In this document: positions 11,289 through 24,642 of the stretch, piece by piece | Layout: every line of letters starts with the position of its first letter | Numbering within the stretch: the stretch's first letter is position 1 | Virus record (IMG/VR): IMGVR_UViG_2737471860_000002 | Location: 1 to 26,886 of that record | DNA: 26,886 nucleotides | Strand: one strand, 5' to 3' | From: a virus | Lineage: Duplodnaviria > Heunggongvirae > Uroviricota > Caudoviricetes | Notes under the pieces: generated by a model | The model's database searches: none | Told to the model about the DNA's origin: nothing | Seen by the model: the letters and a program-made list of their open reading frames with translations, nothing else | Made by a program: the position numbers and the translations under genes

Positions 11289-11865
11289 GGATCACGTCGT
11301 TAATTTCAGTGTGTTCGCCGCAGCGCAGCGTTGCCCCGAGGCGCAGGAAGTCCGGGAGCGTGGCGAGATCAATCTCTTCATCCAGCCGGAATTCCTGCTC
11401 CCACGTCACCGCCCACATGGTGACGCCCAGCCCGTCGAGGCTGACGGAGTAAATGTTGTCTGCCCGCACATCAGCAGCCATGCGTTCAGCCCCCATGCCC
11501 CAGGTGGCATCCGACGACAGCAGACGTTTGATCACCTTTCCGGTCAGGACTTCACAGCGCACGTCGCGGGAGTACCCCCACGAATCCGTTGCCATGATGT
11601 AAGCCACCCAGGTGACCAGACCGGACAGCCCGCCACGCGGGTTGATATCCCGGACACGCAGGGCCGCGACACGGATACAGCCGGTGCGACCGGACAGATA
11701 GCGTTTCACTTCCTCCGGGCTGTTGAACTGGCCGATGTGACGCTCCACCACGCTGGCCCGGTCGGGGGTATCCCCCTGAAGTACTGTTTTCAGCCAGGCC
11801 ACAATGCGCTCTGCGGCCGCAACGGTGCTCCCCGGCGTGCGCAGTTCAGGGCGTTGTTCTGTCAT
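11254..11865 (-). CDS. Neck/tail-terminator candidate (Mu gp37/gp38-like)
   Basis: 203-aa ORF between head-completion genes and the sheath; 4-nt overlap with the upstream gene. Confidence 0.5.
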   Translation of the reverse strand: MTEQRPELRTPGSTVAAAERIVAWLKTVLQGDTPDRASVVERHIGQFNSPEEVKRYLSGRTGCIRVAALRVRDINPRGGLSGLVTWVAYIMATDSWGYSRDVRCEVLTGKVIKRLLSSDATWGMGAERMAADVRADNIYSVSLDGLGVTMWAVTWEQEFRLDEEIDLATLPDFLRLGATLRCGEHTEINDVIHVRGDDGTETD

Positions 11866-12407
11866 GGCAGAACCTCCTTCCAGAAATGACTGATAACCTG
11901 TTGCAGCTCCTGCTGGTTGGCAGAAGACAGCCCCAGAAATTCACGTTGTGGAATGTTCATCATGCGGTTATGTGCGCCGACGGTCTGCCAGACCGGATAT
12001 TTCAGCGCCCGCCCGAAACACTGCGAGATAAGTCGTTTGTGGGCGCTGACCGGCACACTGCCGGAAAAGCCGTCATTCATGATGCGGGCATAATCCAGCG
12101 GTGAACCGATACGCACCACGCGGTTTTCCACGATGTACTGGATACTCTCCAGCAGATGGCCTTCACCACGCAGCAGACTCTGGTTGCCGTGGCGGGTCTT
12201 TTTGTACCCGTCAGACCAGTCCGGCCAGCGTTCGCCACCCGGACTGGTTTTCTCATCGATGATGCGGCGGCGGGTCTGTGATTCCACCACCGCACCGATG
12301 CTCTCCAGCAGCTCTGCCTGCAATGAACCATCTGCCAGCTTTTCAACGGCGCGGCGGATATCCTCCAGACGCTGGTCACCGCTGACCTGTACAGAAATCC
12401 CCATCAC
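11862..12407 (-). CDS. Phage virion morphogenesis protein (Mu G / P2 S family-like)
   Basis: 181-aa ORF; internal SLLRGEGHLLESI motif resembles the virion-morphogenesis family signature. Assignment by pattern only. Confidence 0.45.
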   Translation of the reverse strand: MMGISVQVSGDQRLEDIRRAVEKLADGSLQAELLESIGAVVESQTRRRIIDEKTSPGGERWPDWSDGYKKTRHGNQSLLRGEGHLLESIQYIVENRVVRIGSPLDYARIMNDGFSGSVPVSAHKRLISQCFGRALKYPVWQTVGAHNRMMNIPQREFLGLSSANQQELQQVISHFWKEVLP

Positions 12408-13223: not shown

Positions 13224-14129
13224 TTATGCCGGGGTGGTGATGTACGGGCTGTCCACGATCTCCACATCCTTGTACCAGATGTTGGAATCGCCGCCGTTAA
13301 CCAGCATGGCGTCAATAATGAGCTTCGCGTCCGCACGGTTTTTCGGCCCCACCACAAGGGTGGTCGGGCGGATGCCCAGTGGTTCACCGTTGGTGCCCTT
13401 CATGCCCCGCAGTAACTCATTGGCTTTTTTGTAGTTCTCCACCGTCAGTGCCGCACGGGAACCGACGGCGGTCTGCCAGAAGCCGAAGCCTGCATTACAG
13501 CGACCGTCCACCCCGTACAGGAATTCGTTATTCTTGAAGGTGTGCTCGCTGTTCAGATCGTCCAGGGCTTCAAACTTAAAGGCGCGTCGCGTCTGCCAGA
13601 TAATGGGTTTCAGTACCTGCGACTCATCAATCAGGAACCACGGCTCACCCTTGTCTGATGCCGGGGTGCCGACAACGTTGCTGTACGTGCCGTCACCCAG
13701 CGGGTGGTCTTCATCAAAGAAGTTCTGGCCGTCAAAGCACAAAGTTTTGAATCCGGCACACAGCAGGGCGTAACACAGCTTGTCCGGGAACACGGCTGTC
13801 ATACGTCCATAGCGTTCAGCAGTAATGCTGTACTGACCAATCTGGTCATCTTCAATGTGTTCGCGCTTAACGCGAATGGAACTTTCCCAGAGTTTGTTGG
13901 TGATGGTGTAACCATAACCGTCCAGCGTTGCCAGCTGACGCTCACCGACCCATTCTTTGATGTCCGGTAAATCTTTCATCCAGCCGTAAGTGTTGGAGGC
14001 GGACGAACTCGGCACCTCAGAAGCAATGCGATTCCACTGCGGTTCGACACCACTCAGTCCACGGGTAAAGGCGGCGCTCAGGCAGGTGGTCAGTGCATGA
14101 AGGATTTCAGAACTGACAGTCTGTCCCAT
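13224..14129 (-). CDS. Major capsid protein (Mu gpT-like)
   Basis: 301-aa ORF immediately after the protease/scaffold gene (1-nt overlap); size and position match the Mu-type major head subunit. Confidence 0.75.
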   Translation of the reverse strand: MGQTVSSEILHALTTCLSAAFTRGLSGVEPQWNRIASEVPSSSASNTYGWMKDLPDIKEWVGERQLATLDGYGYTITNKLWESSIRVKREHIEDDQIGQYSITAERYGRMTAVFPDKLCYALLCAGFKTLCFDGQNFFDEDHPLGDGTYSNVVGTPASDKGEPWFLIDESQVLKPIIWQTRRAFKFEALDDLNSEHTFKNNEFLYGVDGRCNAGFGFWQTAVGSRAALTVENYKKANELLRGMKGTNGEPLGIRPTTLVVGPKNRADAKLIIDAMLVNGGDSNIWYKDVEIVDSPYITTPA

Positions 14130-15091
14130 TAGTTGTTCTCCTGTTTTGGTTTAGCGGCGAGGAACTCTTCCCCGGTAATACCCATGCTGCGACACATCGC
14201 CAGTTCGGCGTCGGTCAGTGTCTGCGCGGGTTTATCCTTGCCCTGGCTGGGCTTGTCGTTGTTCACCAGCGGCTGTGTACCTCTGGTGTATTCCGCAAAC
14301 TGTTTACGGCCTTCTTCCGTGCGACAGGTGGCAAGGAACATGTCACGGTTTGCCGGGGCCACTTTTCCGGCTTCGATGGCCGCATCCACAAGCGCTTCTG
14401 CTTCCTTCTCTTCAAGTTGCTGAAGGCGTTGTTCTGCGGTTTCGGCACGGTTCAGTGCCAGATTGTGGGTTTCCACCGGCACAAACTTCGTCAGGTCAGG
14501 TGTCTGTGCGCGGTTCAGCGCCACCTGTTCGTTCTCCTGAAGTTGTTTAATGGCGGCCACGGTATCGTCCACCGTGGCAGATTCAGCCAGCCCAAGCAGG
14601 CCGGTGATTTGCACAGGTACTGTCATCGGGTTTTTCTCCGTATTCAGTGCAGGAAAATCCAGGTTAGGTTTGTTGGTCAGCCCGACGCTGGACAGGCGTG
14701 TCACCACACCCTCCGCGTCATGGAAAAACGCCGGGCTGTAATAGCGGTAGCGGCGCTCGCTCAGCATCCAGCGGGCGGACTCACTCCAGGCAACACGGCC
14801 TTCAATGGTGCCGCTGTCCGTCACCCGCAGTTCTTCAACCCAGCCATACGCCGGAGCATCTTCACCACGCGGGCCTTTAATTTCGGTGGCGTGTTCAATG
14901 TCCACCGGAATTTTGATGTCGGACGAACGGGCAACCACCTCATGCGGATTGCGGTTAATCCACGTCCGGCCATCGCGCCCGGTAAACTCACCCGCAGGAA
15001 CGAGTTCAAACCATTCCGGCAGTTGAACAGGTGTCAGCTCAGGGATAGGTTCTGGCAGGGAAAAACACAGCGCCAGCAGTTCCGGTTGCAT
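14129..15091 (-). CDS. Head maturation protease with C-terminal scaffold domain (Mu gpI-like); candidate internal scaffold start at 14626
   Basis: 320-aa ORF; C-terminal half is coiled-coil-like. In-frame internal ATG at 14626 preceded by GGAG about 10 nt upstream. Confidence 0.7.
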   Translation of the reverse strand: MQPELLALCFSLPEPIPELTPVQLPEWFELVPAGEFTGRDGRTWINRNPHEVVARSSDIKIPVDIEHATEIKGPRGEDAPAYGWVEELRVTDSGTIEGRVAWSESARWMLSERRYRYYSPAFFHDAEGVVTRLSSVGLTNKPNLDFPALNTEKNPMTVPVQITGLLGLAESATVDDTVAAIKQLQENEQVALNRAQTPDLTKFVPVETHNLALNRAETAEQRLQQLEEKEAEALVDAAIEAGKVAPANRDMFLATCRTEEGRKQFAEYTRGTQPLVNNDKPSQGKDKPAQTLTDAELAMCRSMGITGEEFLAAKPKQENN

Positions 15092-15140
15092 GTCAGTCTC
15101 CGTCGTTTTGGGTTACCGACGGTCAGTATGCGGGAGGCAG

Positions 15141-15164
15141 AAAAAAAGCCGGATTTACCGGCTT
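15141..15164 (-). terminator. Intrinsic-terminator-like hairpin (7-bp stem AAGCCGG/CCGGCTT, 5-nt loop) followed by a U7 tract on the minus strand; copy A of a duplicated 38-bp element
   Basis: Stem 15146-15152 pairs with 15158-15164; the plus-strand A7 at 15141-15147 is the minus-strand T-run. A near-identical element occurs at 22840-22877. Confidence 0.55.
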
Positions 15165-15184
15165 CACTGAAAACAGGGAAATAC

Positions 15185-15227
15185 CCCTTCAAAACCCCTT
15201 CAAAAACGCCACAGCGCCTTCAAAAAC
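15185..15227. repeat. Three direct repeats of CCTTCAAAA(A) in the F-I intergenic region
   Basis: Read directly: ccccttcaaaa / ccccttcaaaaa / gccttcaaaaa within 43 bp. Confidence 0.6.
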
Positions 15228-15279
15228 GTCATGGCATACACTCACGCCATCAGAATAAAAAACGCGTTTCTGGTGCGTT

Positions 15280-16056
15280 TCAGGTGGGATTTACGGCGCT
15301 GTCAAATCGGGCCTGTTTTGTCGCCAGCTGGCGCGCCAGTTCCTGCTCACGGTTTATGCCGGGATTGTAGTTCCAGCCCGGATCAATCCCTTCCGGCACA
15401 TCTTCCTCTTCGCCCGTACGTTTGTTCACCCAGCGGACAGTTCTGATTTCCGGCGCTTCGGTGTGAATGGTGCCCTGTGCCGCCAGTTGCGCATATTCAC
15501 CACGGCTGACCTGACGGATGGTGCATTTGCATCCCCAGCCGTTAGGGGCAAAATGTGTCTGCCAGAACGGATGATCCACCGGCAGACACAGACGCGCCCA
15601 TTTCACATGCTCCGCCCGGTGCTCACGGGATGGCCCCAGCTCATAAATCAGATACGGCATGGCCCGCTTTGTCCGCTGAATGCGTTCCCACTGGCCCGCC
15701 GCGCGGGCGGTGCGCATGTTGGTGTCAAAAATCGTGCGGAGGCGGCGGTCGCTGCCCAACTGTACTGTGCGCGTTTCGCCCGTCAGCGGATCATCCATCT
15801 CCTGAACGCCCCACCATCCGCGTTTTATCAGCAGCGGTTGCAGCGCCTCCCGGAACTCGCTGAACGTCTGCCCGCTTTGCAGGGCGTCTTCCACAAGGGC
15901 TTTCACATCCGACAACAAATCCAGTTGCAGCATTTTTGCCACGGTGAAGCTGTTCCGGTGCTCTTCCCGCCATACATCCCGGTAATCAAAACCGGGGCGC
16001 AGCTTCTTCGCCTTCAGCCACGCCAGCGCCTCTTTCGGGATGAGGGTTTCACGCAT
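15280..16056 (-). CDS. Mu F-like head morphogenesis protein
   Basis: ORF track gives 15280..16113; I place the start at the Met at 16056 (MRETLIPKEA...), giving an 8-nt overlap with the portal stop. Position after the portal gene. Confidence 0.65.
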   Translation of the reverse strand: MRETLIPKEALAWLKAKKLRPGFDYRDVWREEHRNSFTVAKMLQLDLLSDVKALVEDALQSGQTFSEFREALQPLLIKRGWWGVQEMDDPLTGETRTVQLGSDRRLRTIFDTNMRTARAAGQWERIQRTKRAMPYLIYELGPSREHRAEHVKWARLCLPVDHPFWQTHFAPNGWGCKCTIRQVSRGEYAQLAAQGTIHTEAPEIRTVRWVNKRTGEEEDVPEGIDPGWNYNPGINREQELARQLATKQARFDSAVNPT

Positions 16057-17620
16057 GAGCAGCGTCTCCCAGCGCACGCGCCTTAAAGCACACCTCTGCC
16101 AGTTGCAGGGCAAAGTCGTCCGCGTTCAGCGTTTCCTGAAGCTCAGGCAGGCGTTTCAGAAAGTCATCAAAACTGTCGCATTCCTGCGCCAGTGTCAGCA
16201 CCGGGTTCGTGAACGCCTCGCCGGTTTTCTGCCAGTCACGCAGGGCATCATCCACCATCTGTGCCAGTTCGTCGGGGTGTTCCCGGTTCAGGGCGACGCG
16301 CTCGCGGTTCATCGCCATTTCACCCGGCATCCCGGCGGAAATCGGATGCAGAACATCAGCCCCTTCGTCCGGTTCAGCCAGGCCGAACCGGTCCCGCAGC
16401 TCCGATTCCTGAACCCGCATCCCCCGGTCAATCAGCGGCACCAGAGCATCTGTCAGCGCCTTCAGATCTTCTGCTTCACTGATACGCAGAACAACACGGG
16501 GGTAGTGCGCCTGTGGCCCGTAGTTGGCCTCGATATAGGGACGCACCAGATATTCATTCAGCGTGTTAGCCAGCTGTCGCGCGTCCCAGCGCACAATGTC
16601 CATGCGCACCTGATTGTGCACGTCCGCCTGTGAACGCGAACTGCCGTTATCCGTGGTCATGGTCTGCCCCAGCACAGCCTTACTGATTTGTGCATCACAC
16701 CATTCCGCCATTTCACGGAACAGTGCGCCGCCGTTATTCCGGCTGGCGGTTTCCTGCATCTCCAGTTGCATAGACTGCGGAATGGCACACCCTGCATCCG
16801 AGGCAATGGAGGCAATCGCATCAATCAGTACGCGGATTTGCTCCTCCGTGGCGTTGGGACCGTATTTCCCCACCGTAACCGGAATGCCGAATTTTTCCGC
16901 GAATGCCCACCAGTCACGCACGGTATAGGATTTCAGCATGTACATCACCGCCACCAGACGGGCCAGACCGTTACGCAGCGGCAGACCGGATTTCAGACGC
17001 GGCTGGTGAACAATGAATTTTCCCGGTGTCAGCGGTACGCCATCCACCGGTTCATCGTCAGTCAGCAGGCGGAACTGGCGCAGCGTGGGCTTTTCGGCTT
17101 TCAGGAAACGGGGATCAACCCACTCATAATCACGGGGCACCCAGTGGTTGTTGCGGGTGTTCCACAGAATTTCACAGACCGCCACGCCTTTTCCCAGCCC
17201 GTCGAGCAGATCAAACATCAGTTCGGGGATTTGCGGCGCGGCCATCAGCTCACGGATGGCATCCGCCAGCTGCACATCGGCATCGTCGTCACTGGCAGCC
17301 ACCACCACCGGCTCGATACCCGCCACCGTCAGCTTGCGGGTGCGCAGTACCGAGGCGTAATGCAAATCGCGTTCTTCCATCTCTTCGGCAAGGATAAAAA
17401 AATCACGCGTGATGCCGTCGGCGGCATTGCGCAGAATGCCTGCCAGCCTGCCGGGATTCAGCCCGGAAGCAATGCTGATGCCCGGCGAGGCCGAGCGCAC
17501 GCCAGCCTGACGCGGACGGGCCTGTATTTCATCGAGCGTCTCTTTTTTGAGCCTGTCTTCCTCACCGGTTGCCGGGTTCAGCAGACGGCGAACGGCCCCG
17601 GCCAGTTGTTTCAGGTTCAC
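16049..17620 (-). CDS. Portal protein (Mu gpH-like)
   Basis: 523-aa ORF directly after the large terminase (ATGA overlap); size and position typical. Confidence 0.75.
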   Translation of the reverse strand: MNLKQLAGAVRRLLNPATGEEDRLKKETLDEIQARPRQAGVRSASPGISIASGLNPGRLAGILRNAADGITRDFFILAEEMEERDLHYASVLRTRKLTVAGIEPVVVAASDDDADVQLADAIRELMAAPQIPELMFDLLDGLGKGVAVCEILWNTRNNHWVPRDYEWVDPRFLKAEKPTLRQFRLLTDDEPVDGVPLTPGKFIVHQPRLKSGLPLRNGLARLVAVMYMLKSYTVRDWWAFAEKFGIPVTVGKYGPNATEEQIRVLIDAIASIASDAGCAIPQSMQLEMQETASRNNGGALFREMAEWCDAQISKAVLGQTMTTDNGSSRSQADVHNQVRMDIVRWDARQLANTLNEYLVRPYIEANYGPQAHYPRVVLRISEAEDLKALTDALVPLIDRGMRVQESELRDRFGLAEPDEGADVLHPISAGMPGEMAMNRERVALNREHPDELAQMVDDALRDWQKTGEAFTNPVLTLAQECDSFDDFLKRLPELQETLNADDFALQLAEVCFKARALGDAAHA

Positions 17621-19152
17621 AGTAAACCTCCCTCATTTTTCAGGCCGCGTGTCAGCTTCATCTGGCGGCGCGCGTTGCGTTCTTCCGGTTTTGCCGGGCG
17701 GTTCAGGCGGTGCAGCTCGTAACGGTGGCAGTCATCTTTACTGGCAAGGAAGCCCAGGAAAATGGCCACAGCGGCGTCGCCGTGACGCTTGCGGCCATCG
17801 CTGCCTTTAGTACGGGTATCGTCAATGCCGGGAACGCCACGCAGTAACTGAATGGCCCCGAGGTCATTGATCACGTCTTCATGCTTCGGAAGGATCAGCT
17901 CATCATCTTCAAATGCTGCACGGAAACGGGGCATGTTTTCGCGGTAGAACGCCACGGACAGCATCACCTGTTCCACTTCGTCGCCGTACCGCTCCGCCGC
18001 CTGTTCTGCCAGATACTGACCATTCCCCCGCGCATCCATTTTGATACCGTCACGACGGGGCAGACGATCGCAAAGCCAGAACAGCACCTGCTCCTGCTGT
18101 TTAAACGGCACATTGCCAAGCTCAACCAGGAACGGCACCTCGCGGGTGGTGTCATTGTTCACCGTCACCGGGGCCAGTACGGTCAGGTCACCCGAACGCG
18201 CAAAGTCTTCCCCCAGACAGTGGCGCAGGTTCTTCGGGAGTTTTTCCAGTTCAGGGCGCACCACTGTTTCCAGCCATTCCCGGATATCTGCCCGGCGCTG
18301 GCTTTCCGTCAGTGCGTTAAATTCCGGTGTGCCGGTAAAGCGCAACACTTTCCCGGTGCCACGGGCCGCACGTTCACGCAGTGAGCGGGGGATATACGTG
18401 CCGCCGCCGTTTTTCGGGACGCAGTAATATTCCTCCAGTGCGTCTTCGCGGGTGGCGGTATTTCGCAGCAGGCCTTCTTTCCATTCCGCCTCGGCTTCCG
18501 GTGACCACACCATGCCGCGCACCTGACAGATACGCCGGTACAGCCCGTCATTGCAGGCGTCGTCCAGCGTGATGGTGTGAATGCTGTAATCTTTTTTGCC
18601 CGCGCGGCTTTCCTGAATCAGCTGGTTAAACAGGTTGTCCACGCCGTCATGGGTGGAAATAAGGCGAATTTTGCCGCCCCATGTTTTCAGCGGCAGCACA
18701 GCCTTCAGCAGCTCGTCCAGTTTTTCATGGAACGCGGCTTCGTCGATGGTGACATTCCCCTGCATCCCGCGAATGTTGCTCGGGTTGCTGGACAGTGCCT
18801 TGACCTTAAAACCGCTGGCGAAGTACACGACGAACGTCAGAATGGCCTTGTCTTCGTCGGTGATCACTTCCTCGCAGATTTCTTCCGCTGCCGCATTAAA
18901 CGCTTTCGCCCACATCGCCACGGCGTCGATAAATTCGCGGGCCATCTCCTTATTCGAACCGATATAAAAGTGATCGCGCCCGCCGTCTTCCTTCTTCAGC
19001 GATGCCGTCAGTGCCGCATCTGCCGCCTCCGCCCAGGTTAAACCGGTACGGCGGGATTTCTCTGCAATTTTCAGGTCGGCATCATCCGCCACCCAGCGTT
19101 TCTGATACGGCAGCAGGACATCGTATTCACTGAATGTGTTCATCCTGGTCAT
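17617..19152 (-). CDS. Terminase large subunit
   Basis: 511-aa ORF after the small terminase (4-nt overlap); N-terminal Walker-A-like KSRRTGLT and acidic C-terminal nuclease-like region. Confidence 0.75.
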   Translation of the reverse strand: MTRMNTFSEYDVLLPYQKRWVADDADLKIAEKSRRTGLTWAEAADAALTASLKKEDGGRDHFYIGSNKEMAREFIDAVAMWAKAFNAAAEEICEEVITDEDKAILTFVVYFASGFKVKALSSNPSNIRGMQGNVTIDEAAFHEKLDELLKAVLPLKTWGGKIRLISTHDGVDNLFNQLIQESRAGKKDYSIHTITLDDACNDGLYRRICQVRGMVWSPEAEAEWKEGLLRNTATREDALEEYYCVPKNGGGTYIPRSLRERAARGTGKVLRFTGTPEFNALTESQRRADIREWLETVVRPELEKLPKNLRHCLGEDFARSGDLTVLAPVTVNNDTTREVPFLVELGNVPFKQQEQVLFWLCDRLPRRDGIKMDARGNGQYLAEQAAERYGDEVEQVMLSVAFYRENMPRFRAAFEDDELILPKHEDVINDLGAIQLLRGVPGIDDTRTKGSDGRKRHGDAAVAIFLGFLASKDDCHRYELHRLNRPAKPEERNARRQMKLTRGLKNEGGLL

Positions 19153-19730
19153 ACACTAATCCCCAGTATTTCACGTTTGATGGTGTCAGCCGCACCGCCT
19201 GACAGACCGCCTGTTCTGACCAGCTCTTCGGTTTTCTCTGCCATCTCCTGCGCAAACGCATCGCGGATCGCTTTCTCGCGTTTATGGCTGGTCATGGCTG
19301 CCGCTTCCAGACGCTGGGCAACCAGCGCCAGTTGCCCCAGCGCCTTCGGTGCAACGGGCTTGTCGTCTTCTGCCATCGACATGGACGTTTCAAAGGCCAG
19401 CGTTTTTACAAACTCCATCAGCAGCTTGCCGACGTCTGACGTCGGCGCGGAACCCAGCTTTGCCGCCCAGACTTCGGCCATTTCGCGGGAGGCGCGGATT
19501 TTGGCCCCGACTTTTTCCATGCGGATGGCATAGCGGTTTAAGCCCGTCCGGCTTAACTGCATCTCTTCCGGCAGGTTATGTTCGTCAATCAGGGCGTTGA
19601 TGGCTTCGCGGATTTCTTCCTGTGTGTGCCGCTTTTCCCGCAGCATCTGATGCAACTGCTCCCGGATGCTGTCCGGGAGTAAATCCACTTTGGAAAGACG
19701 GCCACGGGTGGGGCGTTGTTCATTTTCCAT
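19149..19730 (-). CDS. Terminase small subunit (Mu gpD-like)
   Basis: ORF track gives a start at 19751; I prefer the ATG at 19730 (MENEQRPTRG...), preceded by AGGAGG 7 nt upstream. Helix-rich basic protein ahead of the large terminase. Confidence 0.65.
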   Translation of the reverse strand: MENEQRPTRGRLSKVDLLPDSIREQLHQMLREKRHTQEEIREAINALIDEHNLPEEMQLSRTGLNRYAIRMEKVGAKIRASREMAEVWAAKLGSAPTSDVGKLLMEFVKTLAFETSMSMAEDDKPVAPKALGQLALVAQRLEAAAMTSHKREKAIRDAFAQEMAEKTEELVRTGGLSGGAADTIKREILGISV

Positions 19731-19867
19731 GTGTGCCCTCCTGTTGCTCACTACGCTGTGAACTTTCGTATGCAGATTTCAGCGCGCCACTCTGGATTTC
19801 ACGCCATGTCAGGTTGTGCGCCAGACGGCGGAGTTCATCACGGGACGCTTTACTTATCGGATTCTTT

Positions 19868-21983: not shown

Positions 21984-22194
21984 TGAGTTTTTCCTTGTAC
22001 TTCTGGCACTGCCAGAAAATGTCCCGTGTATCCACGGAGTTCCAGCCACGCATGTAGTAGCTGGCGTGTGTGCCGTCATGGCCGGTATAGTCCAGCGGTT
22101 TCGGGGGCGGACCTCCGGCCATGCGGTGCAGAACCTCCTGACGCAGGCGGTCACGCCGCCCGGCTTTCAGTGAGGCATCCCAGCCTTTACCCAT
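21967..22194 (-). CDS. Small basic hypothetical protein (75 aa) immediately after the endolysin
   Basis: 8-nt overlap with the endolysin stop, consistent with translational coupling. Confidence 0.45.
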   Translation of the reverse strand: MGKGWDASLKAGRRDRLRQEVLHRMAGGPPPKPLDYTGHDGTHASYYMRGWNSVDTRDIFWQCQKYKEKLNAQNE

Positions 22195-22792
22195 ATCCCC
22201 CCCGCGTGGCGGACATGATGCCTGGAGGGGTATTGATGATTTCCAGACAGGCGTCGGTCAGCTTTTCCATGCGGTTAAACCATCCGTTCAGGTATTTGCC
22301 CTGGGCGGGTTTTGATTTGATGATGTCGGCATAAAAGCGGGAACGACGGACAATGCAGCGGGTCAGCAACCAGTCCGGGGTGGACAGGCTCACGGCCTTA
22401 CGGGTACGCGGGCCGATGATGCCGTCAGCATCCACATCAGCGGCTTCCTGCAAAATCCTGATGGCTTTTTTAACGCCATGCTGAACCGCCGCATCGAACA
22501 CAAACATCGCCACGCCATCAGGCCACTGGTCACATCCGGCAGGCAGCCAGTAATCGCGCCAGTAAATCTGCGCAACCTGTTCGCGGGTCAAATCCCTGAT
22601 GCGGGTATCCGGTTTGCCGTCGCCGTTGACATCAGTTTTGCCATCAATCACACCGTCGCGGCGGTCAGAAATGCCGTATTTGGTTTCACCGCCACGGTCA
22701 GTGGGGTCATTGACATAGACGCCTTCGATATCGGGACGCAGAATAAAATTCAGCGCATGCTCAAAGGCTGGGGAGAATTTTTGATTTTCCAT
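22187..22792 (-). CDS. Endolysin, GH108-type lysozyme with C-terminal peptidoglycan-binding domain
   Basis: 201 aa; N-terminal ...DIEGVYVNDPTDRGGETKYGISD... matches the GH108 signature (EGGY, NDP.D.GG.T..GI) as I recall it; first gene after the Mor-like gene. Confidence 0.75.
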   Translation of the reverse strand: MENQKFSPAFEHALNFILRPDIEGVYVNDPTDRGGETKYGISDRRDGVIDGKTDVNGDGKPDTRIRDLTREQVAQIYWRDYWLPAGCDQWPDGVAMFVFDAAVQHGVKKAIRILQEAADVDADGIIGPRTRKAVSLSTPDWLLTRCIVRRSRFYADIIKSKPAQGKYLNGWFNRMEKLTDACLEIINTPPGIMSATRGGYG

Positions 22793-22831: not shown

Positions 22832-22847
22832 ATGGTGCCGGAGGCAT

Positions 22848-22871
22848 AAAAAAAGCCGGATTTACCGGCTT
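22848..22871 (-). terminator. Intrinsic-terminator-like hairpin plus U7 tract directly downstream of the Mor-like gene; copy B of the duplicated 38-bp element
   Basis: Stem 22853-22859 pairs with 22865-22871; plus-strand A7 at 22848-22854. The wider element GGAGGCA-N-AAAAAAAGCCGGATTTACCGGCTTCA-N-TGA spans 22840-22877. Confidence 0.55.
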
Positions 22872-22877
22872 CATTGA

Positions 22878-23327
22878 TTAAGGGCGTCGTGGCGGACGAC
22901 GAACGGGGTGAGGCAGGTTCGGGGAGTGGTAGAACAAATCCGGCTGGTATTTATTACGCTCCAGACGCCGCATCCGTTTGATGGCCTTGTAGACGGTTTT
23001 ATACGTCACTCCGTAACGCTGAACCAGTTCAGGAATATTATGGCCGTTAAAATCACGCCAGATACGCATATCCCGGACAAGATTCTCCAGAATATTCCCC
23101 CTCGGAACATAAACCTGCATCCCGCCAATATGGCGACAAATCGCCACAACCAGCTCAAGGGAATGAGCAGGGTCTGCGCCAATCCGGGCCAGCTCTTTAC
23201 GCAGCAGTGCGTTCAGTTCAGAAAGTAACGCCGGATAAGCGGTGTTTTCCTGGTAATCGTTAAGATATTCCAGAACGCTGTCGTCCCGAAGGTCTTCGAA
23301 TAAATCCTGCTCTTTCATCTGTTTCAT
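22878..23327 (-). CDS. mor: Mor/C-family transcriptional activator
   Basis: 149 aa; strong resemblance by memory to Mu Mor (DLF.DL.DD..L..L, ALLAELN.LLR.EL.R.G.DPAHSLE.VVAIC.H.GG.QVY.PRG, RD.RIW.DFNG.N..EL...YGVT..TVYKAI.RMRR); lies directly after gemA as in Mu. Confidence 0.7.
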   Translation of the reverse strand: MKQMKEQDLFEDLRDDSVLEYLNDYQENTAYPALLSELNALLRKELARIGADPAHSLELVVAICRHIGGMQVYVPRGNILENLVRDMRIWRDFNGHNIPELVQRYGVTYKTVYKAIKRMRRLERNKYQPDLFYHSPNLPHPVRRPPRRP

Positions 23328-23875
23328 ACAGCAATTCTCCCGCTGTTTCGTGCGCGGGCATATGCACTGGTCAGTGCATCATAGCCGCGCAGCTCCCGCC
23401 CGGATGGGCTTACAGGTAAAGGCACACCATGTCGGGCAAAGGCTTCCCGGATGCAGCGCATATGCCACTGTTTGAGCGTTTCGAGCACAACCTGCAACGA
23501 TTTCCCGTGACACCAGGCCAGAGTGGAAACACCCTGGCCGCCATTACGTCTGGCCGTCAGGCGTTCAACGTATTTGTCCAGCGCGGCGTCGCTGCTATCA
23601 GCGACAAAGCCATCCTGAAACATCTGCTGCCAGATTTTATAAATCTTCTCGCGCGGTGTGACATACCCCTTAAAGCGACGGCGGGGATGTTTTTTCTGCT
23701 TTTTAAAACCGCGCTCTTTCATGGCATCGAGCACACGTTCCAGTTGTGCGACGGTCAGCTCGCGGCAACTGGTCTTGCCTGTGCACTGCACCAGAAAGGC
23801 GCGGTAAGTGTCATCGTCGAGTTGTAGATCACGACGGGCGACATGAATTAATTTAATCAGGGATGTGCGATTCAT
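23324..23875 (-). CDS. gemA: GemA-like protein (Mu gp16 family)
   Basis: ORF track gives a start at 23911; I prefer the ATG at 23875 (MNRTSLIKLIHVARRDLQLDDDTYRAF...), preceded by GGAGG. Position upstream of mor as in Mu. Confidence 0.65.
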   Translation of the reverse strand: MNRTSLIKLIHVARRDLQLDDDTYRAFLVQCTGKTSCRELTVAQLERVLDAMKERGFKKQKKHPRRRFKGYVTPREKIYKIWQQMFQDGFVADSSDAALDKYVERLTARRNGGQGVSTLAWCHGKSLQVVLETLKQWHMRCIREAFARHGVPLPVSPSGRELRGYDALTSAYARARNSGRIAV

Positions 23876-23895
23876 TATCGTACCTCCGAAAAAGA

Positions 23896-23915
23896 GGCGG
23901 TGCGGCAACACCGCC
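23896..23915 (-). promoter_or_regulatory. Hairpin (7-bp stem GGCGGTG/CACCGCC, 6-nt loop) followed on the minus strand by UCUUUUU, immediately upstream of the gemA RBS
   Basis: Inverted repeat read directly; terminator-like on the minus strand, and it also lies in the 5' leader of the plus-strand ORF. Confidence 0.4.
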
Positions 23916-23947: not shown

Positions 23948-24214
23948 ATGAAAAACAGTGAACAGCCTTATGATGTTGCAGGGTATGTCATTGCCTCAAG
24001 GTTGCTGATACTCCTTGTCAGAAAGGGGCTGATTACCGCAGAGGAAGGCAAAACGATCCTCGAAGCCGCAGCAAGCGGAGCGGCAGAGGCTCCGGCATTG
24101 AGAACAACGAATAATCCCATTCTGCAAATATCACAGCTAATCACTGATACCATCAGTTTGTTAGACCAAGATTCTGATGAATATCAAAAGCCTCAGCCAT
24201 CTGAGCATCCGTAA
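23948..24214 (+). CDS. Hypothetical opposite-strand small protein (88 aa)
   Basis: ORF track gives 23900..24214; I place the start at the ATG at 23948, with AGAGGA 8-9 nt upstream. Mixed charged/hydrophobic composition. It is the only plus-strand candidate in the window, and its 3' end is convergent with and overlaps the next minus-strand gene by about 60 nt. Confidence 0.4.
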   Translation: MKNSEQPYDVAGYVIASRLLILLVRKGLITAEEGKTILEAAASGAAEAPALRTTNNPILQISQLITDTISLLDQDSDEYQKPQPSEHP

Positions 24215-24467
24215 GAATATCTTTATTTGATAGTCCCAGCCTGCGACGAATGTATTCCTCGCGGGCTGCTTCATTTTGTAGCGCCACGGCAGCTTCCACC
24301 TGGTTCATTTCACGGTTAATAATGCTCCGGACTTCTCTGGCGGTGAGGTCATGCTCAATACCATATTTAACGATATCGTGCATACGTTCCAGCATCTTTA
24401 AATTAGCCATGACGCCATCAATATCAACTGGTGTGAATTTCATTTCTTTATTCTCTGGTTTATTCAT
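24153..24467 (-). CDS. Hypothetical early-region protein (104 aa)
   Basis: Start placed at 24467 (MNKPENKEMKF...), preceded by AAGAGG 9 nt upstream; 8-nt overlap with the upstream gene. Confidence 0.55.
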   Translation of the reverse strand: MNKPENKEMKFTPVDIDGVMANLKMLERMHDIVKYGIEHDLTAREVRSIINREMNQVEAAVALQNEAAREEYIRRRLGLSNKDILTDAQMAEAFDIHQNLGLTN

Positions 24468-24642
24468 TTCGTAATACCTCTTCGCAATAAAAGATTTCAC
24501 TGGGATAACGTTTTTGTATGCGCTCCATCACCTGCATACACACCTGCTCTGTGGGCCAGATTTTTTCTGTTACCGGAATGGCATCACAGGCATCATTTCC
24601 ACAGGTGCCAACCAGCAGGACAAAGCCAATTAACTTAATCAT
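24460..24642 (-). CDS. Small Cys-containing protein with N-terminal signal/TM segment (possible lipoprotein, non-canonical lipobox)
   Basis: Start at 24642 (MIKLIGFVLLVGTCGNDAC...) with AGGAA upstream and an ATGATTAA-type overlap with the upstream stop. The longer track ORF would overlap the upstream gene by about 100 nt. Confidence 0.5.
   Translation of the reverse strand: MIKLIGFVLLVGTCGNDACDAIPVTEKIWPTEQVCMQVMERIQKRYPSEIFYCEEVLRNE

Follow-up and report, generated by a model that had tools for sequence, protein, structure and literature searches.

The question raised by this locus is whether a single phage gene encodes two proteins, a head maturation protease and, from a start codon within the same reading frame, a separate scaffolding protein. 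The gene lies at positions 14129..15091, on the minus strand, of a 26,886-nucleotide (nt) stretch of DNA from a phage of the Caudoviricetes (IMG/VR virus record IMGVR_UViG_2737471860_000002), the whole of which we refer to as the window. An initial annotation had proposed a protease/scaffold open reading frame (ORF) here, leaving its strand unstated, with a nested scaffold gene beginning at an in-frame ATG at 14626 some 10 nt downstream of a GGAG. These features are indeed present. The full-length ORF, which resembles gene I of phage Mu, encodes 320 amino acids (35.5 kDa), the internal ATG occupies 14624..14626 as codon 156 (Met156), and the GGAG that forms its Shine-Dalgarno (SD) sequence, at 14636..14639, is separated from it by the 9-nt spacer AAAAACCCG, the minus strand reading ...AAT ACG GAG AAA AAC CCG ATG ACA GTA.... 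The assignment of Met156 as a start is based on sequence and on conservation among homologues. The nested ORF that would begin there, resembling Mu Z, covers 14129..14626 on the same strand, shares the frame and stop codon of the protease gene and encodes 165 amino acids (18.0 kDa). We consider it very likely that a separate scaffold protein is made by initiation at 14626, a reading which is supported both by the annotated start of Mu Z, found in the same alignment column, and by a start codon and SD whose nucleotides are themselves conserved.

On this reading, two proteins would be made from a single reading frame on one late mRNA. Initiation at the ATG at 15091, which has its own SD GGAG at 15098..15101 (minus strand) with a 6-nt spacer, would produce the 320-residue protein, in which a flexible linker joins an assemblin-fold serine protease to a helical scaffold region. 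Initiation at the internal ATG, directed by the GGAG 9 nt upstream in unstructured, A-rich mRNA, would produce the helical C-terminal part alone as the scaffolding protein, the equivalent of Mu gpZ/p20. Since the C-terminal region is common to both products, the protease should be built into the procapsid alongside the scaffold and the major head protein gpT; it would then cut the scaffold, allowing scaffold exit before DNA packaging.

Correspondence with the Mu I/Z genes

The full-length product matches the Pfam family PF10123, Mu-like_Pro ('Mu-like prophage I protein'), over residues 29-311 (E 1.1e-44) and the PHROG family phrog_328, 'head maturation protease' (E 3e-89). A further profile, phrog_15607, aligns with its first position at residue 156 (E 3e-40). 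In the GenBank record of Mu, gene I (18056..19141; capsid maturation protease, Mup32) contains Z (18590..19141; Mup33) in frame, Z being labelled 'scaffolding protein Z, p20, start site internal to gene I' and provided with a ribosome-binding site at 18576..18580; this agrees with the statement of the initial annotation that the Mu scaffold is made from the 3' part of gene I. The GenBank notes on I and Z cite PMIDs 3904174 and 11922669, and a full-text search of the literature on Mu gpZ returned only secondary statements and no direct evidence. The comparison with the Mu start that the initial annotation had suggested places Met156 and Met179 of Mu, the annotated start of Z, in one alignment column with both BLASTP and MAFFT, the two proteins being 27% identical over their full length (BLASTP E 5e-15, residues 27-319 against 21-361 of Mu gpI). 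Immediately before the start, the window protein reads TEKNP-M, encoded with ACGGAGAAAAACCCGATG, and the Mu protein QENKP-M, with CAGGAGAACAAACCCATG.

The resemblance to Mu extends beyond this column. In both cases the protein belongs to the PF10123 family with homology across both halves, the I gene is followed by the major head gene T and joined to it by a stop/start overlap, a GGAG lies 9 nt before the internal in-frame start, and a late-promoter-like block with the common sequence CCTCCCGCA(A/T)ACTGAC is found upstream. There are also differences. The two products are 361 and 183 amino acids long in Mu compared with 320 and 165 in the window, the window lacks a gene G between F and I and instead carries a G-like virion morphogenesis gene downstream, at 11862..12407, and the position of the Mu activator site is occupied in the window by a perfect dyad.

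Conservation of the internal start codon and evidence for selection on the mRNA

We collected 886 homologous proteins and the DNA of 125 homologous loci, from which a codon alignment of 115 unique genes was made; 49 representatives with less than 90% amino-acid identity, Mu included, reach down to identities of about 25%. At the Met156 column, 109 of the 115 unique genes have ATG, and five of the remaining six have an ATG one or two codons away; in an alignment of 22 sequences (A1) the column is invariant. Both a start codon and an SD are present at this position in 48/49 representatives, the ATG or GTG lying 6-9 nt past the SD. Where the two domains meet, an SD and an ATG or GTG are likewise present in all eight distant phages considered (Mu, BcepMu, Ochrobactrum POA1180, Pelagibaca P1, Ralstonia RS138, Pseudomonas MP38, Alteromonadaceae B23 and Faecalibacterium Mushu), and the arrangement is conserved among phages of three proteobacterial classes (Alpha-, Beta- and Gammaproteobacteria) as well as of Firmicutes. 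Many proteins of ~160-175 amino acids beginning at the equivalent of Met156 are present in a library of representatives at 50% identity, and these were considered as possible stand-alone scaffold genes. In both of the cases inspected the contig is truncated, its edge lying 14 nt from the gene in one and 49 nt in the other, and the short protein is a gene-calling artefact that gives no evidence of an independent scaffold gene.

Conservation of this kind could in principle reflect the protein rather than the mRNA. The SD and internal start fall within an inter-domain linker (residues 141-158; 14618..14671, minus strand), which is of low confidence in an AlphaFold model built from 59 sequences (mean predicted local distance difference test score, pLDDT, 81; below 50 at residues 145-153). 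Though predicted to be disordered, the linker peptide TNKPNLxxPALN is nearly invariant in the family, with conserved columns in or near the linker at T139, N140, P142, N143, P147, L149 and N150. This is what would be expected of a cleavage or recognition site, and by analogy with the herpesvirus R site the peptide is a candidate for autoproteolytic release. It may thus be that only the full-length protein is translated, with the scaffold part released by autoproteolysis in the linker or acting in cis, and that the ATG and GGAG follow incidentally from a conserved peptide; phage P2 gpO works in this manner (summarised in bioRxiv 10.64898/2026.09.13.751334). A constraint on the peptide does not, however, account for the codons used. 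The Glu152 codon is GAG in 42/42 representatives, whereas at five other conserved Glu columns the share of GAG is 15-53% and Glu codons overall number 470 GAG against 854 GAA (~35% GAG). The wobble position just before this GAG carries a G, completing GGAG, in 27/27 cases in which an A or C opens the following codon; if that codon is GAx, so that the motif reads GAGGA, a G is found there in only 2/18 and A, C or T in the rest. This covariation of the wobble G with the register of the motif gives a Fisher p of 2e-10, uncorrected for relatedness. Three representatives without the Glu (L034, L035 and L028) retain the motif in another register and with other amino acids, through the codons GAA GGA GGT, CAA GGA GAC and AAG GAT AAA, and in the rare variant protein clusters with Val at the Met156 column the codon is always GTG, with GGAGGA or GGAGGG upstream. 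The exclusive use of GAG, the register covariation, the persistence of the motif with other residues and the restriction of Val to GTG reflect selection on the RNA motif and not on the protein. Given also that cleavage is compatible with internal initiation and that the two may coexist, we regard a fusion protein as the sole product as unlikely. If TNKPNLxxPALN is cleaved, cleavage and internal initiation would both operate.

A gene-wide scan gave a mean anti-SD pairing energy of -6.3 kcal/mol upstream of the Met156 column, compared with a gene mean of -1.8 (sd 1.5), and this column alone among 298 well-occupied columns combines a conserved start codon (ATG in 45/49) with the top-ranked anti-SD pairing. 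Of all the mRNA windows along the gene, those at residues 143-157 show the least structure in the 49 representatives; a scan of the whole window gave no Rfam match. An SD-like motif need not serve initiation, and one could consider that it causes a translational pause which aids folding of the protease domain. Its placement exactly at the boundary of the folded N-terminal domain would suit such a role, and a second SD-like peak, at residues 263-265, shows that such sequences occur in this gene where there is no start codon. A pause site would have no need of a start codon, yet an ATG or GTG is kept at a distance from the SD that fits initiation. The peak at 263-265, which we also considered as a start and rejected for want of a start codon (the residue being Phe265), is explained by the conserved residues E-G-R-x-Q-F. 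We therefore think a pausing role very improbable.

Several points weigh against the nested-scaffold reading. Judged on the window sequence alone, the Met156 ATG with its GGAG is within chance, given that an SD core (GGAG, GAGG or AGGA at -16..-5) precedes 9/187 internal in-frame ATGs (~5%) in the 35 minus-strand genes of the window, and that the site ranks only 8th among these ATGs by anti-SD pairing energy (-6.6 kcal/mol), several of those ranked above it probably being true gene starts. That Met156 is an ordinary internal methionine which happens to follow a GGAG could also be argued from the stronger, unconserved GGAGG that the gene holds before GTG130. Such a coincidence is excluded by the conservation of the site across representatives as distant as about 25% identity and across the phages of four bacterial groups, and we give it next to no credence; it is only because of this conservation that the site has significance. 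The related sequences were treated as independent in our statistics. One representative of the 49, L043, from a metagenome-assembled genome of the Gammaproteobacteria (PIVM01000124.1, gene ~2501-3316), has neither start nor SD at the domain boundary, where it reads ALNHQQAVPSHEKTTSYNAVKLALGL; this may be a decaying prophage or a lineage relying on the fusion protein alone. The anti-SD energy is -6.6 kcal/mol at both the full-length and the internal start, so SD strength leaves the expected excess of scaffold over protease unexplained, and the amino-acid make-up of the linker could be partly responsible for both the low structure and the A-richness of the mRNA. Lastly, the 18-kDa product is a predicted one, and its production, its scaffold role, the ratio of protease to scaffold and the steps of cleavage are inferred.

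The GTG130 codon was itself considered as an alternative internal start, having a stronger SD in this sequence (GGAGG with a 5-nt spacer, -10 kcal/mol), and was rejected as unconserved. Its column is GTG in 25/49 representatives, with a mean SD energy of -2.9, and a start there would fall within a beta-strand of the protease domain in the AlphaFold model.

Protein architecture and related protease-scaffold systems

In the model, residues ~5-140 (14672..15079, minus strand) form a beta-rich N-terminal protease domain of assemblin-like fold with a pLDDT above 90, and its structural neighbours are assemblin-fold proteases, a group that includes T4 gp21 and the herpesvirus protease; this assignment is model-based. 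We take HK97 gp4 to belong with these capsid maturation serine proteases also. His67 and Ser119, which are invariant in alignments of 59 and of 22 sequences, are candidate catalytic residues. A sequence search returned no match to a PDB chain at E <= 1. The C-terminal half contains a predicted helical region (residues 160-313) with long helices at 174-196 and 206-240 and further helices at 246-255, 259-271, 294-303 and 307-313. The conserved C-terminal helices at residues ~292-313 (LTxxELAMCRSMGITxEEFL; 14153..14218, minus strand) are common to both products and, by analogy, may be the capsid-targeting end.

By analogy, lambda C/Nu3 and herpesvirus UL26/UL26.5 follow a comparable scheme. Lambda C is a ClpP/SppA-type (S49) protease and is not known to have the assemblin fold, and PF10123 is the only Pfam match of the window protein, which is thus not of the S49/ClpP type; the likeness to lambda is accordingly one of mechanism and does not involve homology. 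In herpesviruses, UL26.5 is expressed from a separate 3'-coterminal transcript, in contrast to the internal bacterial ribosome-binding site in the window. Closer parallels are found among Mu-like phages, where BcepMu gp32/gp33, KS10 gp28/gp29, PaMx73 gene 27 and the 'protease (I) and scaffold (Z)' of DMS3/MP38 all have, as in the window, an SD-preceded in-frame scaffold start inside the protease gene. In BcepMu this is a GTG start at residue 221 of 376, with CAGGAGAAAGACGCA upstream, and in PaMx73 it is Val177 with ACGAGGA. The nested scheme has been stated for KS10 (PMC2628397) and proposed for PaMx73 (PMC4378225). These annotated nested scaffolds differ from that of the window in that several use GTG starts, and they share less than 30% identity with the window protein. 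For the archaeal virus HFTV1, a two-start scheme for gp17/gp17.5 has been demonstrated by ribosome profiling (bioRxiv 10.64898/2026.09.13.751334; see also PMC11565193). Sequence similarity to the window protein is undetectable for both the HFTV1 and the herpesvirus pairs. P2 gpO resembles the window protein in combining an N-terminal protease and a C-terminal scaffold in one polypeptide, but is reportedly synthesised solely at full length and then self-cleaved, without an internal start. A P2-type gene would be distinguished by the lack of a conserved internal initiation site and by a scaffold set free through autoproteolysis alone, and the window gene, with its conserved internal start and SD, does not conform to this.

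Genomic setting and wider meaning

The protease gene sits in a head module, encoded on the minus strand, in the order TerL (large terminase; 17617..19152), portal (16049..17620), Mu F-like protein (15280..16113), the I-like gene and gpT (13224..14129; Mu-type, PF10124, E 1e-111), which is the position of a Mu I/Z-type gene. By their ORF coordinates, the protease-scaffold gene and the gpT gene are joined by a TAATG stop/start overlap at 14127..14131 (minus strand). Other Mu-like functions in the window are Gp27, GemA, a Mor/C-family activator, a GH108 endolysin, Gp36 and a virion morphogenesis protein. A 317-residue ORF on the plus strand (14417..15370), antisense to the protease gene, was taken to be a shadow ORF of the kind typical of GC-rich coding DNA; no protein library was searched with it, and these data give it no support as a gene. 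The listed start of the Mu F-like ORF is a TTG whose SD is weak; a GGGAG SD precedes the ATG at 16056 (codon 20), and the Escherichia coli homologue is 254 amino acids long in RefSeq. The true start is probably 16056 or a few codons downstream, overlapping the end of the portal gene at 16049. Internal ATGs at 23875 (GGAGG, -10.8 kcal/mol), 24467 and 19646 similarly have far better SDs than the listed GTG starts, and the longest-ORF starts of 23324..23911 (minus strand), 24153..24500 and 19149..19751 are probably set too far upstream.

Upstream of the protease gene, at 15112..15170 (minus strand), lies a block which resembles a late promoter and consists of the dyad AAGCCGGTAAATCCGGCTT, a T-run and then CCTCCCGCATACTGAC. 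This last element matches CCTCCCGCAAACTGAC in the annotated Mu late promoter (17977..18043) upstream of gene I. A block of ~40 nt, TCA.TGAAGCCGGTAAATCCGGCTTTTTTT.TGCCTCC.GCA, containing the exact 19-nt dyad, which upstream of the protease gene lies at 15146..15164, occurs in two copies on the minus strand, at 15127..15170 and at 22834..22877, the second between the genes for the Mor/C-family activator (22878..23327) and the GH108 endolysin (22187..22792); two hits to the block were obtained in 0/100 shuffles. In one homologous locus (L084) the dyad is kept through compensatory changes, GGCGG/CCGCC. Taken from the sequence, the two copies are probably late promoters like Plys and PI, with the dyad as the activator site. 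A pattern scan scores the dyad hairpin at 15145..15165 as terminator-like, but a role in activator binding or as a promoter is at least as likely, because the block recurs upstream of the lysis gene and sits at the position of the Mu late promoter.

The intergenic region (15092..15279) also contains CCTTCAAAA in three exact direct copies, which lie upstream of the promoter-like block at 15186, 15197 and 15217 in plus-strand numbering (region 15185..15230), and related TTTGAA/TTTAAA repeats are conserved in the homologous intergenic regions of Klebsiella and Kluyvera relatives. At the corresponding position, the G-I intergenic region of Mu holds a strong gyrase site. In relatives (L002, 2945..2985; L033, 2455..2490), a conserved inverted repeat, CTGTCCGT...ACGGACAG, directly precedes the ATG of the full-length protease and overlaps its SD position. 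It folds with -18.5 kcal/mol (z -3.4) in Kp4866-3 and with a z of -2.1 in Kluyvera; in the window (15092..15125) only 6 bp are left, CCGTCG/CGACGG, with a z of -0.5. Speculatively, the repeat, if transcribed, could mask the full-length SD and so damp translation of the protease relative to that of the nested scaffold.

Of 5,426 complete E. coli genomes, 51 contain close copies of the region, at 90-96% identity. RefSeq gives the homologue in strain VL40, the one such genome inspected, as 'phage protease' only and the nested coding sequence is absent, and most matching phage records similarly carry a single protease or hypothetical-protein annotation. If the other E. coli copies are annotated alike, the scaffolding protein of this prophage lineage would be missing from their protein catalogues. 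The nested gene described here was previously unannotated; it agrees with the annotation of Mu and adds no new principle. Its practical value lies mostly in annotation; for the E. coli homologue examined, an annotation of the kind produced by the Prokaryotic Genome Annotation Pipeline (PGAP) overlooks the nested gene. The codon-level test applied here, which looks for an SD in alternative registers, the exclusive use of GAG and Val encoded only as GTG, could be used generally for nested scaffold genes where expression data are lacking. We would also raise, as a tentative and rather doubtful joint proposition, that the nested start is ancestral to the Mu-like_Pro family, from phages of Proteobacteria to those of Firmicutes, and that the protease-to-scaffold ratio is set by RNA context and not by SD strength. 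If this is true then, taken together with the HFTV1 and herpesvirus cases, a module giving two products from one frame would be an ancient trait of assemblin-fold protease-scaffold genes.
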